Of a stretch of DNA of 23,508 bases, positions 4,529-20,885 are shown piece by piece (positions within the stretch are counted from its first letter, which is position 1; each line of letters starts with the position of its first letter). The notes under the pieces were generated by a model. That model was not told the DNA's origin, made no database searches, and saw only the letters and a program-made list of their open reading frames with translations. This stretch comes from a virus (taxonomy: Duplodnaviria; Heunggongvirae; Uroviricota; Caudoviricetes): IMG/VR virus record IMGVR_UViG_2663763227_000016, one strand, 5' to 3'. Both the position numbers and the translations under genes were made by a program.

Positions 4529-4586
4529 TTTAAAAAGGGTGGCAGAGCAGTCACGGAGTAGAACTGATGCCACCAAAGACTACACA
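4529..4586 (-). ncRNA. dicF: DicF small regulatory RNA (ftsZ-targeting), processed from the operon transcript
   Basis: The minus strand reads ...GTAGTCTTTGGTGGCATCAGTTCTACTCCGTGACTGCTCTGCCACCCTTTTTAAAG, nearly identical to my recollection of K-12 DicF. It has the long-range stem GGTGGCA/TGCCACC followed by a U-run. Ends are approximate (+/-5 nt). Confidence 0.8.
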
Positions 4587-4911
4587 TGGATATTGTGGCG
4601 GGGCTGTCACTTAAGCGTATGGTCAGCCTGACAACCCGGTGTCCTCAAGGGGAAGGAATAACCCCGCCATACTTACCGCCGCGCCATTTCGCGGATTGCC
4701 ACAACCGGAAGCGCACGGTCGAATTAAATTTAACGACAAAGTACAGAGAGACGAGCTTCTCCGTGTGCTTTCGCGTTATGCTCTGACTTTTCAGAGAAAT
4801 ATCCTTTCAGTAAACTGTCAGTGCCGGATGTTCACCCGTGTCCGGCGCACGCACTCCACTTCACCCGTGGAGAACTCCTTAATTACCAACCTTAGCTTCG
4901 TTGGTTAGCTA

Positions 4912-10846: not shown

Positions 10847-11083
10847 TTTTATGGATCACCTTTCTGATTGATTTCATATTGGCGAGGTGACGTGAGTTAA
10901 GTAGAATGGCTGCGGGTGCTTGAGGCTATCTGTCTCAGGCATGAACACTGAAAGGCAGATAGAGAAAAGCCCCAGTTAACATTTCGCGTCCTGCAAGACG
11001 CTTAACATTAATCTGAGGCCCAATCTATGTCTCACAAATGTAGGTTAGCCTCTTACGTGCCGAAAGGCAAGGGGAAGCAGGCT

Positions 11084-11239
11084 ATGAAGCAGCAAAAGGC
11101 GATGTTAATCGCCCTGATCGTCATCTGTTTAACCGTCATAGTGACGGCACTGGTAACGAGGAAAGACCTCTGCGAGGTACGACTCCGAACCGGCCAGACG
11201 GAGGTCGCTGTCTTCACAGCTTACGAACCTGAGGAGTAA
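11084..11239 (+). CDS. hokD: Hok/Gef-family type I toxin (HokD/RelF-like)
   Basis: 51-aa ORF MKQQKAMLIALIVICLTVIVTALVTRKDLCEVRLRTGQTEVAVFTAYEPEE, near-identical to Gef/RelF as I recall them. GGGGAAG ribosome-binding site; an in-frame upstream extension (from 11027) resembles a mok-type leader. Confidence 0.85.
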   Translation: MKQQKAMLIALIVICLTVIVTALVTRKDLCEVRLRTGQTEVAVFTAYEPEE

Positions 11240-12736: not shown

Positions 12737-13102
12737 ATGACTGAACGCATAGAATTTGTTTTGCCTTACCCGCCAACGGTGAACACTTACTGGCGACGTC
12801 GTGGCAGCACATATTTTGTATCAAAAGTCGGTGAGCGTTATCGCCGTGATGTGGCGCTTATTGTTCGCCAGCAGCAACTGAAATTAAACCTGTCCGGAAG
12901 GCCGGCAATAGAAATTATTGCAGAGCCACCGGATAAGCGCCGTCGTGACCTGGACAATATCCTGAAGGCACCACTGGATGTACTGACGCATGCGGGGCTG
13001 CTCATAGACGACGAGCAGTTTGATGAAATTAATATTGTGCGCGGTCAGCTTGTTCCTGGTGGGCGGTTGGGGATAAAAATCACAGAACTGGAGTACGCAT
13101 GA
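12737..13102 (+). CDS. rusA: Holliday junction resolvase RusA
   Basis: 121-aa ORF containing YPPTVNTYW...RRRDLDNILKAPLDVLTHAGLLIDDEQ...GGRLGIKITELE, closely matching RusA as I recall it. Confidence 0.9.
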   Translation: MTERIEFVLPYPPTVNTYWRRRGSTYFVSKVGERYRRDVALIVRQQQLKLNLSGRPAIEIIAEPPDKRRRDLDNILKAPLDVLTHAGLLIDDEQFDEINIVRGQLVPGGRLGIKITELEYA

Positions 13103-13788
13103 ATAACCAGTATTTACAGTTTGTTCGTGAGCAACTCATGATTGCCACCGCCGATTTGAGTGGATCAACAAAAGGGCAGCTTGAGGCCTGGCAGGAGAAT
13201 GCCATGTTTGATACAGGGCGTTACAGGCGTAAAAAAATCCGGTACCGCGATGAAGTGACTGGAAAAATGATAACGCGGGATAATCCACCAATCCCGGGAA
13301 AGCAATCGCTGGCGAAGGGGGTGTCAATTCCTCTCGTCAGTCCGGTTGAGTTTTCGACATCATCGTGGCGGCGGGCTGTTCTGTCTCTTGAAGAACATCA
13401 TAAAGCCTGGTTGTTGTGGTGTTACAGCGGGAGTATTTGTTGGGAATATCAGATCGCGATAACGCAGTGGGTGTGGAATGAATTTAAAACCCGGTACGGC
13501 ACCAGAAAAATTGCAGGGAAAACGCAGGAGCGCGTGAAGAAGTTGATCTGGCTGGCGGCACAGGATGTCAGAGGATGGATTACCGGGTGTGAGGTCTACC
13601 AGAGACAGGAGCTTGCCAGACTGTGTGGAGTTAAGCCTGATAACTGGAGCCATAATTATGCGAACTACTGGCGTGAGATGTGCGATATTTTTAAGAGTCT
13701 CGATAGAGAATCTGTGATTTGCACCGTGAAAATAAGAGCGCAACAAAAAGCGACTTTTTCACGACGAGATATTGCAAAAGTCAATTAA
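13099..13788 (+). CDS. Putative late-gene antiterminator (Q-like), by position
   Basis: 229-aa ORF overlapping the rusA stop (ATGA), the last gene before a promoter-like TATAAAT box and a strong terminator. I could not match it to lambda Q by sequence. Confidence 0.4.
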   Translation: MNNQYLQFVREQLMIATADLSGSTKGQLEAWQENAMFDTGRYRRKKIRYRDEVTGKMITRDNPPIPGKQSLAKGVSIPLVSPVEFSTSSWRRAVLSLEEHHKAWLLWCYSGSICWEYQIAITQWVWNEFKTRYGTRKIAGKTQERVKKLIWLAAQDVRGWITGCEVYQRQELARLCGVKPDNWSHNYANYWREMCDIFKSLDRESVICTVKIRAQQKATFSRRDIAKVN

Positions 13789-15449: not shown

Positions 15450-15525
15450 GGCCCTTTAGCTCAGTGGTGAGAGCGAGCGACTCATAATCGCCAGGTCGCT
15501 GGTTCAAATCCAGCAAGGGCCACCA
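15450..15525 (+). tRNA. tRNA with CAU anticodon (Ile2-lysidine type or Met; ileZ-like)
   Basis: Manual cloverleaf: acceptor GGCCCTT/AAGGGCC, D-arm GCTC-AGTGGTGA-GAGC, anticodon loop CTCATAA, T-arm GCTGG-TTCAAAT-CCAGC, encoded CCA. Confidence 0.85.
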
Positions 15526-15532
15526 TCACATA

Positions 15533-15609
15533 CCGCCATTAGCTCATCAGGAAAGAGCGCCAGCTTTCGAAGCTGGTTGCGCGGAGTTCGGGTCCCCGAA
15601 GGCGGTCCA
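15533..15609 (+). tRNA. Possible tRNA-Arg (anticodon UCG), degenerate or pseudo-tRNA
   Basis: Manual fold: D-arm GCTC-ATCAGGAAA-GAGC, perfect anticodon stem CCAGC/GCTGG with loop TTTCGAA, encoded CCA. It has mismatches in the acceptor and T stems, a non-canonical T-loop (TTCGGGT) and starts with C. Confidence 0.45.
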
Positions 15610-15622
15610 TTATCTGTATCCT

Positions 15623-15699
15623 GCGTTGTTAGCTCAGCCGGACAGAGCAATTGCCTTCTAAGCAATCGGTCACTGGTTCGAATCCAGTACAACGCGCCA
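15623..15699 (+). tRNA. tRNA-Arg (anticodon UCU, reads AGA)
   Basis: Canonical cloverleaf: acceptor GCGTTGT/ACAACGC, D-arm GCTC-AGCCGGACA-GAGC, anticodon stem ATTGC/GCAAT with loop CTTCTAA, T-arm ACTGG-TTCGAAT-CCAGT, encoded CCA. Confidence 0.9.
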
Positions 15700-15743: not shown

Positions 15744-15958
15744 CTCACAATTCAGGCGGTTGACTGTTGTCTGGTTTGCGGGGAGTTTGTTAAAAGAAAC
15801 TGGCATGGTGAATCCCCCTGTGCGGAGGGGCAATCAGCGAGTAGGTATATGGGATAATCGCGGATTCAGGTGCTGGTACTGAATTCACCGGGAGGCACCC
15901 GGCACCATGCAATGGCACATAGCGCCACTCTCCAGCCCCTCTCCGGAGGGGCTTTTCT
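15744..15958 (+). repeat. Structured non-coding module, copy A (TTGACT box, two hairpins, terminator-like GCCCCTC-TCCG-GAGGGGC-TTTT)
   Basis: Shares with copy B, at a 468-bp offset, the blocks CTCACAATTCAG, CATGGTGAATCCCCCTG.GCGGAGGGGC, CACCGGGAGGCACCCGGCACCATG and CCCCTCTCCGGAGGGGCTTT. Confidence 0.6.
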
Positions 15959-16147
15959 GTGCCGGATACATCACAGTTTCTGGAACCTTAGGTACTACAG
16001 TATCAGTCAGGGTGCTATATTTTCAGATGTGATGAAAGCCTGTCAGCAGGCAGGGCGTATCGGAAATGACCCAGTAGAGAAAACGTTGACTCAGATACCG
16101 GTGCTGAGTTACCGGGAAACCGGCATCACATGACCGCTATCCTTCCA

Positions 16148-16174
16148 GGCCCATCCGCTCCGGTGGGCCTTTTT
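16148..16174 (+). terminator. Terminator-like hairpin between the two repeat modules
   Basis: GGCCCA-(10-nt loop)-TGGGCC followed by TTTTT. Confidence 0.5.
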
Positions 16175-16211
16175 ACTGCAGAAAACAGGTTCCCCGTTAA
16201 ATGCTATGTTG

Positions 16212-16444
16212 CTCACAATTCAGTAAGTTGACAGTTGCCTGTCAGACTGGGCATTTGTTAAAAAAATTTCGCATGGTGAATCCCCCTGAGCGGAGGGGCG
16301 ACTGGTGACGGTATAATCTCTGATTATCAAAACGAGAATGACGCGGGTTTAGTGGCACCGGGCTGAACTCACCGGGAGGCACCCGGCACCATGTGCATGA
16401 TGATACAGATACGCGGCTTTAGCCCCTCTCCGGAGGGGCTTTCT
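16212..16444 (+). repeat. Structured non-coding module, copy B (TTGACA box, GGTATAAT, hairpins, terminator-like hairpin)
   Basis: Diverged tandem copy of module A. It contains TTGACA (16229-16234) and a consensus-like TATAAT (16309-16314). Confidence 0.6.
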
Positions 16445-16673
16445 TATGGACAAAAAAAGCCCGCGCTGGGAGACGCGGGCGGCAAGGAATAAACAATAAA
16501 ACGTGAAGTAATATTTCAGCTGGCGAATAATACCCCATAGTAATCACTCTGCGCAACTGCGCGGTCTTTTTCGAATTGCGGGCTGTAGTCTCCCTTCTGC
16601 CATTGTCCTGTAACTTCCGGACTTCAGCCTGCTCCTTATCTGACTCACAACATTATCCCGCCCGGGAGGATTC

Positions 16674-18527: not shown

Positions 18528-18612
18528 AAAGTGAGCCAGCCAAATGGAAGGTATCGTTAAACTCACCGGTAGTGTCAGTGGGTCGTCTGAGATGCCTGCA
18601 TGAGTTATCAGA

Positions 18613-18642
18613 GCCATCAGTACTTAACTGGTGGCTTTTTTT
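18613..18642 (+). terminator. Intrinsic terminator upstream of the lysis cassette
   Basis: GCCATCAG-TACTTAA-CTGGTGGC stem-loop followed by TTTTTTT. Confidence 0.6.
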
Positions 18643-18677
18643 ATTGTTGTCAGCTTCCGGATAACGGGAGACGGGGT

Positions 18678-18893
18678 ATGTACCAGATGGAAAAAATCAC
18701 AACAGGTGTGTCATACACCACGTCAGCGGTGGGAACGGGCTACTGGTTCCTGCAGTTGCTGGACAGGGTTTCCCCGTCTCAGTGGGCGGCAATAGGCGTG
18801 CTGGGGAGTCTGCTGTTTGGGCTGCTGACATATCTGACTAACCTGTATTTCAAAATCAGAGAGGACCGTCGTAAGGCTGCACGGGGAGAGTAA
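18678..18893 (+). CDS. Class II holin (phage-21 S21-type pinholin) with dual start (antiholin from 18678, holin from 18687)
   Basis: [71 protein letters not shown] matches S21 as I recall it. Two transmembrane segments and the M-x-x-M dual-start motif; the ribosome-binding site is a G-rich run (GGGAG/GGGG) just upstream of the first ATG. Confidence 0.85.
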
Positions 18894-18897
18894 TTCA

Positions 18898-19242
18898 ATG
18901 ACTCAAAACTATGAACTGATTGTGAAAGGGATCCGCAATTTTGAGAATAAAGTTACGGTAACTTTAGCGTTACGGGACAAAAAACGCTTTGACGGTGAAA
19001 TTTTTGACCTGGACATCTCGCTGGACCGTGTTGAAGGTGCCTCGCTGGAGTTTTATGAGGCAGCAGCCAGAAGGAGCATCAGACAGGTCTTCCTGGATGT
19101 TGCTGCCGGGTTATGTGAAGGGGATGAGCAGTCGCCGGAAAAGCGCCCCGTAATTTTAGAGGCGCAGGATGTGTTGATAACCTACAGAGGAAAACTACCG
19201 GGAATAATTACGGGTTCTCTGAAGAGTCCGCCGAAATGGTAA
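18898..19242 (+). CDS. Hypothetical protein inserted between holin and endolysin (possibly YdfR-like)
   Basis: 114-aa ORF starting 4 nt after the holin stop with GGAGAG upstream. Qin carries ydfR at the same position; the family assignment is from memory of gene order only. Confidence 0.5.
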   Translation: MTQNYELIVKGIRNFENKVTVTLALRDKKRFDGEIFDLDISLDRVEGASLEFYEAAARRSIRQVFLDVAAGLCEGDEQSPEKRPVILEAQDVLITYRGKLPGIITGSLKSPPKW

Positions 19243-19480
19243 TTTTACCAGCATATTTTTCATCCAGTAATACGGCAAGCCGCCTGAAAGAGTCTTGTTG
19301 TTCCTGAGACCATTTGGGATTGCATGATTCAAACTGGATTGATGCCAGCGTTGATTGCATCTGTTCCCTTGGAATTGAGAATGCCAGATATGAGAAGGCG
19401 ACGGTAAGGGTATTCACGTCTTCCCGAAGCCTGGAAATGCTGTCGAGCAACTCCTGTAGAGAAATGGTGTTATTGTCCAT
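19208..19480 (-). CDS. Hypothetical protein, antisense within the lysis cassette
   Basis: 90-aa ORF with GAGGA 8 nt upstream of its ATG (19480). Its 3' end overlaps the convergent 114-aa gene by 35 nt. It is divergent from the endolysin across a 105-bp region. Confidence 0.4.
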   Translation of the reverse strand: MDNNTISLQELLDSISRLREDVNTLTVAFSYLAFSIPREQMQSTLASIQFESCNPKWSQEQQDSFRRLAVLLDEKYAGKITISADSSENP

Positions 19481-19585: not shown

Positions 19586-20119
19586 ATGAACGCAAAAATC
19601 AGATACGGCCTGTCGGCTGCCGTTTTGGCGCTGATTGCCGCTGGTGCGCCTGCGCCTGACATTCTCGACCAGTTTCTGGATGAAAAGGAAGGTAACCACA
19701 CCACGGAATACCGTGATGGCGCGGGTATCTGGACCATCTGCCGCGGTGCCATCCTGGTGGATGGCAAACCTGTCGTTCCGGGCATGAAGTTGTCGAAGGA
19801 AAAATGCGACCGGGTTAACGCCATTGAGCGTGATAAGGCGCTGGCATGGGTGGAGAAAAACATCAGAGTGCCATTGAGTGAACCCCAGAAAGCGGGGATC
19901 GCGTCATTCTGTCCGTACAACATTGGTCCCGGTAAGTGTTTCCCGTCGACGTTTTATAAACGAATTAATGCAGGTGATCGCAGGGGAGCGTGTGAGGCGA
20001 TTCGCTGGTGGATTAAGGACGGTGGCAGAGACTGCCGTGTCCGCTCAAATAACTGTTATGGTCAGGTATCCCGTCGTGACCAGGAGAGCGCGCTGGCGTG
20101 CTGGGGAATCGACAGATAA
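19586..20119 (+). CDS. SAR endolysin (phage-21 R-type lysozyme, GH24)
   Basis: 177-aa ORF with an N-terminal Gly/Ala-rich weakly hydrophobic signal-anchor-release segment (LSAAVLALIAAGAPAP) followed by the lysozyme catalytic E-x8-D-x5-T triad (EGNHTTEYRDGAGIWT). Confidence 0.85.
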   Translation: MNAKIRYGLSAAVLALIAAGAPAPDILDQFLDEKEGNHTTEYRDGAGIWTICRGAILVDGKPVVPGMKLSKEKCDRVNAIERDKALAWVEKNIRVPLSEPQKAGIASFCPYNIGPGKCFPSTFYKRINAGDRRGACEAIRWWIKDGGRDCRVRSNNCYGQVSRRDQESALACWGIDR

Positions 20120-20211
20120 GCAGAATATTTTGCTGAAAAATAAGGTATGGCCACGCGGGCGGATAACACGAAATCCTGCGAACTGGCGAAACGTAAGTGA
20201 ATAAAAGTAAA

Positions 20212-20248
20212 AACCCCGTTTGTTGGCACCAAGCGGGGTTTTGTGTTT
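20212..20248 (+). terminator. Terminator-like hairpin between endolysin and Rz
   Basis: CCCCGTTTG...CAAGCGGGG stem followed by TTTTGTGTTT. Confidence 0.5.
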
Positions 20249-20278
20249 CCTGACTCCGGAAAAGTCAAAGGAGAAAGT

Positions 20279-20416
20279 GTGTTTGATTTTAGCAAACTGA
20301 TTCGGGAGATTCGAGTGATGGCTGAAAAATTATCCACCTGGAAGTTCATTCTTATCTGGCTGGTGTTTGTGATTATGGCCTCCGGTTATTTCATCGGTCA
20401 GATACGCTGGTGGTGA
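20279..20416 (+). CDS. Small single-pass membrane protein ORF (45 aa) coupled to Rz
   Basis: GTG start with AAGGAG 5 nt upstream, product [45 protein letters not shown]. Its stop (20414-20416) lies 1 nt before the Rz ATG. It is below the size cutoff of the supplied ORF track. Confidence 0.35.
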
Positions 20417-20417
20417 A

Positions 20418-20885
20418 ATGAACCGCGTACTGTGCGTGGTCATCATTGCCCTGCTGGTGGCCTGTGGTGCGCTTAGTCTGGGGCTGAATCATTACCGTGA
20501 TAACGCCATTACCTACAAAGCCCAGCGCGACAAAAATGTCAGAGAACTGAAGCTGGCGAACGCGGCAATTACTGACATGCAGATGCGTCAGCGTGATGTT
20601 GCTGCGCTCGATGCAAAATACACGAAGGAGTTAGCTGATGCGAAAGCTGAAAATGAAACTCTTCGCGCTGACGTTGCCGCTGGTCGTAAGCGCCTGCGTA
20701 TCAACGCCACCTGTCCAGGTCCCGTGCGTGAAGCCACCGGCACCGCCCGCGTGGATAATGCAACCGGCCCCCAACTGGCAGACACCGTTACACGGGATTA
20801 TTTCACCCTCAGAGAGCGGCTGATGACGATGCAGAAGCAACTGGAAGGGGCGCAGGAATATATCCGTACTCAGTGCCTGAAATAA
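20418..20885 (+). CDS. Rz: Rz i-spanin
   Basis: 155-aa ORF with an N-terminal transmembrane segment and coiled-coil-like periplasmic domain, containing an embedded +1-frame lipoprotein ORF. Confidence 0.85.
20638..20823 (+). CDS. Rz1: Rz1 o-spanin lipoprotein, embedded in Rz in the +1 frame
   Basis: 61-aa ORF with GGAG ribosome-binding site, signal peptide plus lipobox (LVVSAC) and a proline-rich mature region ([16 protein letters not shown]). Confidence 0.8.

Follow-up and report, generated by a model that had tools for sequence, protein, structure and literature searches.

What occupies the 298 nt between the stop of the lysozyme gene and the start of Rz in a phage of a kind in which these two genes are otherwise contiguous? 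The question is raised by the virus record IMGVR_UViG_2663763227_000016 (Caudoviricetes), a stretch of 23,508 nt that we refer to as the window and that is of lambdoid prophage type, with a lysis cassette of the phage-21 type. The initial annotation, made from the sequence alone, had placed a terminator-like hairpin and a 45-codon open reading frame (ORF) with one predicted transmembrane (TM) helix between the endolysin gene (R) and Rz, and had proposed that the ORF could be a lysis regulator or a leader peptide. Our comparisons show that hairpin, 5′ leader and ORF form a mobile unit of ~215 bp (window ~20203-20416). Our preferred reading, to which we assign a probability of roughly 0.55 on sequence evidence, is that of a promoter-less late gene that is silenced in layers, including by an antisense RNA, and that encodes a probably harmful membrane peptide. 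The features concerned, in window coordinates, are as follows.

20203-20250, either strand: P1, a GC-rich terminator-like hairpin at the left end of the mobile unit (fold and covariation)
20246-20274, plus strand: P2, a hairpin sequestering the Shine-Dalgarno (SD) sequence (minimum-free-energy fold and covariation)
20279-20416, plus strand: gene for a 45-amino-acid (aa) protein that is predicted to lie in the inner membrane, GTG start, phrog_6632
20304-20320, plus strand: candidate internal start, with an SD-like GGGAG at 20304-20308 (codons 9-10), a 9-nt spacer and AUG14 at 20318-20320
20286-20314, minus strand: predicted antisense promoter, with an extended −10 element TGCTAAAAT at 20294-20286 that is the reverse complement of codons 3-6
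20200-20281, minus strand: predicted cis-antisense RNA of ~80 nt, defined by this promoter and a two-way terminator
20409-20420, plus strand: Rz junction, in which the last codons TGG TGG TGA form the SD-like GGTGGTGA; a single base then separates them from the Rz ATG
20120-20205, plus strand: spacer of ~90 nt after the endolysin stop, outside the mobile unit and common to ant-carrying phages

When the window was viewed as a single sequence, neither element stood out. Terminator-like sites numbered 3 against 3.0 expected in shuffles, and 5.5 kb held 68 ORFs of at least 25 aa, so that hairpin and ORF were both no better than chance; the fold of 20195-20290 gave z = −2.7. Both were judged real because protein-level conservation of the ORF extends across genera and because both hairpins carry compensatory changes. 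Their positions agree with what had been proposed: the hairpin drawn earlier at 20212-20248 is the same object as the stem at 20210-20242, AAGGAG (20268-20273) precedes the GTG at 20279, and the stop codon TGA (20414-20416) lies 1 nt before the Rz ATG at 20418, with a SAR (signal-anchor-release)-type Phage_lysozyme gene upstream and Rz (PF03245) downstream.

The initial annotation had held that a frame broken in homologues amid conserved nucleotides would imply an untranslated structure. We found the opposite, an ORF selected as a protein. It is exactly 45 codons long, with zero indels, in 12 genera, and the pairwise ratio of nonsynonymous to synonymous substitution rates (dN/dS) was 0.01-0.29 with dS near or beyond saturation, apart from one exceptional pair that differs at only 4 sites. 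The 3′ half combines free, saturated synonymous variation with a conserved hydrophobic protein sequence, and distant relatives at 40-60% identity have the same architecture. That the frame arose by chance over a spacer or an untranslated RNA structure might be argued from the abundance of short ORFs and from the lack of annotation in most phage records; the comparative data effectively refute this, and we give it next to no weight. That the ORF is a real gene and that the cassette is mobile are, taken jointly, conclusions that the sequence comparisons support with high confidence.

The protein matched phrog_6632 over its full length (45/45 positions, E = 1e-29), a PHROG without known function. 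This was its sole match, with none to any holin or spanin family, and neither the peptide nor its distant relatives matched Pfam, NCBIfam or PADLOC. Databases name the family only 'hypothetical' or 'phage protein'; PGAP sometimes calls the gene (WP_000459345.1, hypothetical protein), and most phage records leave the ORF blank. Homologues were found in Escherichia coli, E. albertii, E. fergusonii, Salmonella, Citrobacter, Trabulsiella, Edwardsiella and Yersinia, and further in Izhakiella, Sodalis, Brenneria, Pantoea, Symbiopectobacterium and Serratia. Outside those genera they occur in Pseudomonas phages and in a T7-like element of an Azoarcus metagenome-assembled genome. In total, 40 representatives were recovered at E ≤ 1e-3 among 1.84 billion proteins. 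Members of the wider family are 42-54 aa long and share the motif SK(L/I)IRE(L/I)RxMxE(K/R)LPxW(K/R)F, which is followed by the hydrophobic TM segment.

AlphaFold modelled a helix at residues 4-17, a break at 18-19 and a second helix at 20-44, with a mean predicted local distance difference test score (pLDDT) of 85.8. The predicted TM helix coincides with the latter (residues 20-44, nt 20336-20410), the preceding N-terminal helix is amphipathic and no charged C-terminal tail is present; the charge distribution points to an N-in topology. The product is thus a small (<60 aa) hydrophobic peptide with a conserved hydrophobic core, for which membrane insertion is a prediction. The earlier description of the ORF as a mostly unannotated gene for a small single-pass membrane protein is borne out by the protein conservation across genera, the TM helix itself being predicted. 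In a single E. coli sequence (P0025), residues 22-34 differ as a +1 and then a −1 shift would make them, which scrambles the TM helix but leaves both ends of the protein in frame; either the read is in error or the copy is a rare, inactivated one.

The cassette has the same orientation as the surrounding late genes in every case. Its most frequent context is the one found here, from endolysin to Rz (the lysis context also of H-19B and SPN3UB), where it lies between four to five unrelated endolysin types (two Phage_lysozyme types, GH19, GH108-like and one other) and two Rz families (PF03245 and, in E. fergusonii, DUF2514). In addition, at least nine contexts have no adjacent lysis gene. The cassette lies between gpV-like spike and gpW-like wedge genes of the baseplate, for instance in Salmonella phage SEN34, between the head maturation protease and decoration protein genes, and between T7 gp14-like and SLT-domain genes for internal virion proteins. 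It also follows DUF2612, tail-fibre, LPD38 and major-tail genes, stands at operon ends and is found in the tail cluster of Pseudomonas phage YMC11/02/R656. These positions among baseplate, tail, head and internal-virion genes speak against the lysis-specific role that had been suggested. The leader peptide did not hold up either: the ORF starts ~36 nt downstream of the hairpin and not upstream of it, it is under purifying selection at the protein level including the TM helix, and ORF and hairpin also travel as a unit into contexts without Rz.

Copies covering at least 80% of the query were present in 871 of the 5426 complete E. coli genomes. Genomes with any match had a median of 2 places, with up to 10 per E. 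coli genome, and the cassette is also carried by H-19B and by many phages with the Shiga toxin (Stx) types Stx1a, Stx2a and Stx2c. Copies identical to that of the window are present in E. coli strains such as CE10, APEC O18 and S88, whereas none was located in O157 Sakai or EDL933. A first viral scan gave 80 nearly identical E. coli copies and the scan was redone with the distant subfamilies; the sampling is strongly biased toward E. coli prophages.

Homology across contexts starts at TAAAAG just left of the hairpin and stops at the stop codon, and the sequences upstream of the unit differ between contexts. In the window, the spacer aligns with the post-R segment of an ant-type Stx1 phage and of phiSTEC1589 up to GTGAATAAA, homology stopping just before the hairpin; in the Salmonella copy the spacer is partly similar. 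Its conserved core is CGGATAACACGAAATCCTGCGAACTGGC. A 17-codon ORF inside the spacer (ATG 20147 to TGA 20200) is not conserved, with ATG as the start in some copies and TTG in others. The GC content is 0.40-0.47 across 20120-20419 versus 0.51-0.56 in R and the start of Rz; for the unit itself it is 40-46%, below the 51-56% of the flanks. That R and Rz are otherwise neighbours, as had been assumed, proved right: they are contiguous or overlapping in phage Perceval and in K-12 Qin, in which the site is empty and the two genes overlap. In 933W-like Stx phages the junction is occupied by ant instead of the cassette; these phages have the ~90-nt spacer in common with the window and part from it exactly in front of the hairpin.

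At the right end, the gap of 1 nt between stop and ATG was seen in all R-to-Rz copies examined, those with a DUF2514-type Rz included. Since this stop-N-ATG arrangement is kept in every lysis-cassette copy, even with a different Rz family, translational coupling or re-initiation into Rz is plausible. Just upstream of Rz, we also noticed small single-TM ORFs (M(I)SDKLITLxKxLCVxVGISF..., ~43-49 aa) that form a second family, unrelated to the first. They follow ant in ant-type Stx phages (L200:1557-1706; NC_004913.3, Stx1 converting phage) and a copy of the cassette in phiSTEC1589-Stx1c (L202:1638-1769), and are unannotated in both records.

We then asked how such a gene would be expressed. P1 has a 13-bp stem (AAAACCCCGTTTG at 20210-20222 with CAAGCGGGGTTTT at 20230-20242), a 7-nt loop (20223-20229) and the tail TTTTGTGTTTCC. 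Its left flank is rich in A and its right tail rich in U, so that it resembles an intrinsic terminator whichever strand is read. The A-rich flank, TAAAAGCGAAAG, is conserved and is a U tract on the minus strand, and in two members (L023 and L193) the U-rich tail is found on the minus strand only. In P2, the anti-SD UUUCCU (20246-20251) pairs with AGGAGA (20269-20274) as the outer stem and GACU with AGUC (20252-20255 with 20263-20266) as the inner stem. Across copies the inner stem covaries (CCUUG/CAAGG, CGUUA/UAACG and GACU/AGUC), and the anti-SD tracks the SD, with UUCU opposite GGGAGAA, UUCC opposite GAGGAA, UUUCCU opposite AGGAGA and UUUUCUUC opposite GGAAGAA.

The covariation of both hairpins was quantified. 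Across 24 sequences, 9 of the 12 pairs of P1 were changed on both sides and 93% of cells were paired. For P1 and P2 together, in 24 diverse copies, 92% of cells were paired versus 82% in column shuffles, a value that none of 500 shuffles reached, and 13 of 21 pairs were changed on both sides; when the 3′ partners were slid by 1-3 columns, pairing was at most 59%. No Rfam family was found at the locus on either strand, the sole match being a chance-level one to rimP (E = 0.67). One copy, in phiSTEC1589-Stx1c (L202:1440-1500), has a different leader, in which a GGCAG/CUGCC hairpin surrounds a GGGUGG SD-like loop and ends at a TTG start, while P1 and the minus-strand TGCTAAAAT are kept. As this alternative leader shows, P2 is replaceable by another SD-proximal hairpin.

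Of 23 close members, 22 start with GTG, and other members use TTG or, rarely, ATG; we argue that the GTG start is the correct annotation for phrog_6632 ORFs. A promoter scan of the plus strand found no sense promoter in the ~36 nt between P1 and the start codon. Therefore, transcription of the gene must come from upstream, through P1.

The codons of the ORF hold a further signal. Third positions are almost free in codons 23-43 (entropy 1-2 bits) and nearly frozen in codons 1-22, where the frozen codons are often rare ones (GAT, TTT/ATT/CTT, AGC, AAA, CGG/AGG, GAG, TTG, CGA, AAA, TTA). Read on the minus strand, codons 3-6 give TTTGCTAAAAT, with the extended −10 pattern TGnTAnnnT. All 28 distinct members have this pattern in the same position, versus 2.0 expected from synonymous-codon resampling, and it is kept even where the amino acids differ (N-F-I-K, D-I-I-K). 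The match is unique in the window, for which 0.02 were expected. A −35-like TCGAAT lies at 20314-20309, at a spacer of 17 bp; it is formed by the frozen codons 11-12 read in reverse complement, and is TCGCAA in other members.

An RNA started at this promoter would begin with an unpaired stretch, CACACUUUCUCC, of complementarity to start codon and SD, followed by a stem-loop and by P1 as a terminator with the tail UUUUUACUUUUAUU. Its predicted fold has a free energy of −23.2 kcal/mol (z = −3.1). We consider it likely that such an RNA is made. P1 is then probably first of all the terminator of the antisense RNA, and the comparison suggests that its universal job is to end this RNA, sense termination being a second, context-dependent effect. 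The unit would begin exactly at the left flank of P1 because this flank is the minus-strand U tract for antisense termination.

Several other candidates were considered and rejected. A promoter-like site called by the scan on the minus strand (20401..20372) was dropped, as it is not conserved in Salmonella. As a cause of the frozen sites, we set aside a 95-aa ORF on the minus strand (20062..20349), the frame of which crosses P2, P1 and unconserved, context-specific DNA, as well as mRNA structure, RNAalifold having found no consensus structure within codons 1-25.

Furthermore, the frozen region contains a possible second start. Codons 9-11 read GGGAG, AAGGAG or GAGGUG at 6-9 nt before AUG14, which is invariant, and an SD core precedes AUG14 in 29 of 30 distinct members versus 5.0 expected from synonymous resampling. 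The product from AUG14 would be 32 aa long. Three independent 5′-truncated or degenerate copies (Serratia L024:2995-3100, L139:2480-2640 and L136-L138:2489-2626) are without P1, P2, the GUG start and the minus-strand −10; all retain the internal SD, AUG14 and an intact hydrophobic TM ORF. In the last of these (L136-138), the frame is open upstream into unrelated sequence. Some gene callers begin at AUG14 (P0022, P0023). A second, 32-aa product from Met14 is suggested because the internal SD is kept beyond coding need and is also kept in the 5′-degenerate copies, and we somewhat favour its existence. The same observations suggest that the amino-acid conservation seen at residues 3-12 is in part conservation of regulatory DNA and RNA.

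Taken as a model, the locus would be a self-contained mobile cassette that rides in late operons of temperate phages. The ORF would be transcribed only by polymerase arriving from upstream, in this phage as part of the Q-antiterminated late transcript that reads through P1, which would act as a two-way terminator. Translation from the GUG would be damped in four ways, by P1, by the anti-SD/SD pairing in P2, by the weak GUG/UUG start and by the cis-antisense RNA, which would run from the extended −10 in codons 3-6 over the start codon, the SD and P2 and end at P1. In the lysogen, these dampers would keep the long, 45-aa form off. Late in the lytic phase, the mRNA would outnumber the antisense RNA, or convergent transcription would silence the antisense promoter; the peptide would then be made and inserted in the inner membrane, and the 32-aa form would probably be made too.

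A membrane-active, toxin-like late protein would be expected because small toxic membrane peptides usually have such repression; by analogy with these, we rate a toxin-like membrane activity of the peptide at slightly below even. Its physiological role could be the timing of lysis via the proton-motive force or the exclusion of superinfecting phages. More tentatively still, and as a proposal that we ourselves hold to be doubtful, the cassette could represent a widespread, undescribed class of promoter-less, terminator-first, type-I-toxin-like cassettes that ride in the late operons of temperate Enterobacterales and Pseudomonas phages. Its two starts would give a 45/32-aa pair of which the antisense RNA silences the long form in lysogens, and the ratio of the two would set a late membrane event, either proton-motive-force collapse that times pinholin/SAR-endolysin lysis or superinfection exclusion.

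Several observations weigh against the silencing model. The −35-like TCGCAA/TCGAAT is a poor match to the consensus, and a simple promoter scan did not call the antisense promoter. The frozen region partly overlaps the internal SD, which can account for some of the synonymous constraint without an antisense promoter. Counts of G-U versus A-C cells gave no strand of selection for the hairpins. Classical type I toxin genes have a promoter of their own, which the cassette is without, and a true terminator in a baseplate or head operon would cut off essential downstream genes unless antitermination operates there. The literature that we searched, including papers on ribosome profiling of enterohaemorrhagic E. 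coli (EHEC; among them PMC5597208) and the EcOnc/Pas small RNA (sRNA) papers, held no transcript, ribosome-profiling or phenotype data on the locus and no mention of the cassette, its leader structure or an antisense RNA.

One alternative view is that the cassette is an ordinary moron without antisense RNA, in which a simple terminator or insulator precedes the gene for a small membrane protein serving for example superinfection exclusion or lysogenic conversion. On this view the synonymous sites are frozen by translation signals, namely an AU-rich start region and the internal SD, and not by a promoter. Such a moron would agree with the insertion relative to the empty site, the GC content below that of the flanks and the many positions in late operons; the −35 is weak, the internal SD accounts for part of the constraint and the antisense RNA is a prediction only. 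However, an AU-rich start region fails to explain the invariant C of AGC/ATC at codon 5 or why codon 4 ends in T whether it encodes Phe, Ile or Leu, two constraints that together preserve TGnTAnnnT in 28/28 members versus 2.0 expected. Nor does this view account for the conserved A-rich flank to the left of P1 or for L023 and L193, whose U tract is confined to the minus strand, and the unit has no sense promoter from which a prophage could express the gene. We therefore regard a plain moron as unlikely.

A lysis-specific accessory is the other view to be weighed. The protein would here be a regulator or partner of the spanin, the pinholin or the SAR endolysin, for example a modulator of the TM domain of Rz or one half of a holin/antiholin-like pair, and the hairpin and the tight junction would set Rz expression. 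The commonest context, from endolysin to Rz, fits this view, as does the stop-N-ATG that is kept across endolysin and Rz families; in ant-type Stx phages, Rz is likewise directly preceded by a member of the second, unrelated family of small TM ORFs. The trigger of pinholin/SAR-endolysin lysis is depolarisation of the membrane, and a dual start, which the cassette may have, is a hallmark of lambdoid holin genes. On the other hand, the contexts without a neighbouring lysis gene (baseplate, tail, head, T7-like internal-virion genes and operon ends) are hard to reconcile with a function confined to lysis, and the protein neither matches a holin or spanin family nor has a charged C-terminal tail. 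The sampling is also biased toward E. coli prophages, and recombination within the conserved cassette could by itself explain why it persists between R and Rz. We judge a lysis accessory to be quite improbable, and we keep the silenced, promoter-less late gene as the preferred reading.

The gene for the Q antiterminator gives the cassette its late-operon setting, in a window that also has DNA methylase and SASA esterase genes. The features annotated there are the following.

4537-4588: DicF (Rfam, gathering score)
10914-11089: sok antitoxin RNA of a hok/sok-type type I toxin-antitoxin (TA) locus (Rfam, gathering score)
13099-13788: Q antiterminator, the late-operon setting of the cassette
15450-15696: three tRNAs (Rfam, gathering score)
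15774-16451: two tandem STnc100 copies downstream of Q (Rfam, gathering score)
18678-18893: class II holin (pinholin), PF04971 and phrog_20
18898-19242: YdfR/DUF1327 gene
19208-19480, minus strand: small gene convergent with the lysis genes, 90 aa, phrog_2411 (no function assigned), no Pfam match
19586-20119: SAR-type lysozyme, Phage_lysozyme (endolysin, R)
20418-20885: Rz, PF03245
20638-20823: Rz1, embedded in Rz

The convergent minus-strand gene (19208-19480; RefSeq WP_000369850.1) lies between the YdfR-like gene and the endolysin gene and overlaps the 3′ end of the former. In the gap between esterase and holin (18528-18677), a terminator-like hairpin was found at 18610-18638, with no Rfam match there. 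A 2026 preprint described the prophage sRNAs PasA and PasC, which are sited between the sialic acid esterase and the holin/lysozyme genes. The Pas sRNAs were ruled out as a known counterpart of the R/Rz element, their position being esterase-holin and not R/Rz.

In H-19B and many Stx phages, the cassette sits inside the operon that releases Shiga toxin. If the model holds, a regulated membrane-active peptide and an sRNA expressed from the prophage are added to the late programme of medically important phages, and ~215 bp would contain a compact natural example of layered silencing by a terminator, SD sequestration, a weak start and an antisense RNA. It would also mean that what looks like amino-acid conservation in a small protein can stem from regulatory signals on the other strand. 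The cassette further argues for examining the minus strand in RNA-seq data of lysogens when such loci are annotated.

A close parallel is offered by the immI region of phage P22. There, sar is a short antisense RNA that starts from a promoter inside the 5′ end of its target ant, covers the ribosome-binding site (RBS) and stops at an intercistronic terminator, while transcription of ant, an operon gene, begins further upstream. All three sequence elements of this arrangement, the antisense promoter in the 5′ end of the target, the cover of the RBS and the terminator, are conserved in the cassette, where the RNA is predicted. As the sequences are unrelated, this is an analogy. The target here is a 45-aa membrane peptide and not an antirepressor; the cassette is also mobile among late operons and has an extra SD-sequestering hairpin and a possible second start.

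The locus symE/symR is a cis-antisense type I TA locus of the same architecture as sar/ant. With this and other type I systems (hok/sok, ibs/sib, tisB/istR), the cassette shares a hydrophobic single-TM peptide of <60 aa, an SD occluded by mRNA structure, a predicted cis-antisense RNA over the translation start and frequent copies in prophages, several per genome. Unlike these, it is without a toxin promoter, has its terminator ahead of the gene and is tied in its expression to a phage late operon, and no similarity was found to Pfam toxin families or Rfam antitoxin RNAs.

Dual-start holin genes are known from lambda (S105/S107) and phage 21 (S68/S71). Like these, the cassette is found in a lysis cassette with two possible in-frame starts, the ratio of which could be set by the hairpin at the upstream start. 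However, the cassette protein has one TM helix, is 32 or 45 aa long, is without a charged C-terminal domain and matches no holin family. The cassette is also found outside lysis cassettes, and in the window a pinholin is already present at 18678-18893.

The moron concept (PMC4104026, from Juhala et al. 2000) has HK97 gene 15 and lambda bor/lom as lambdoid examples. As in a moron, the cassette is extra DNA of different composition between genes that are adjacent in relatives, at a junction with alternative cargo (ant or nothing). Classical morons, on the other hand, are preceded by a promoter, followed by a terminator and expressed in the prophage state, whereas here the terminator is in front, no sense promoter was seen, the sole promoter-like element points backwards and the stop codon abuts the next gene. 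The ingredients, cis-antisense control, small hydrophobic peptides and morons, are thus of known kinds. What appears to be new, as read from the sequence, is their arrangement: a terminator that comes first, no sense promoter, a predicted antisense promoter within the codons, a possible dual start and free movement among late operons.

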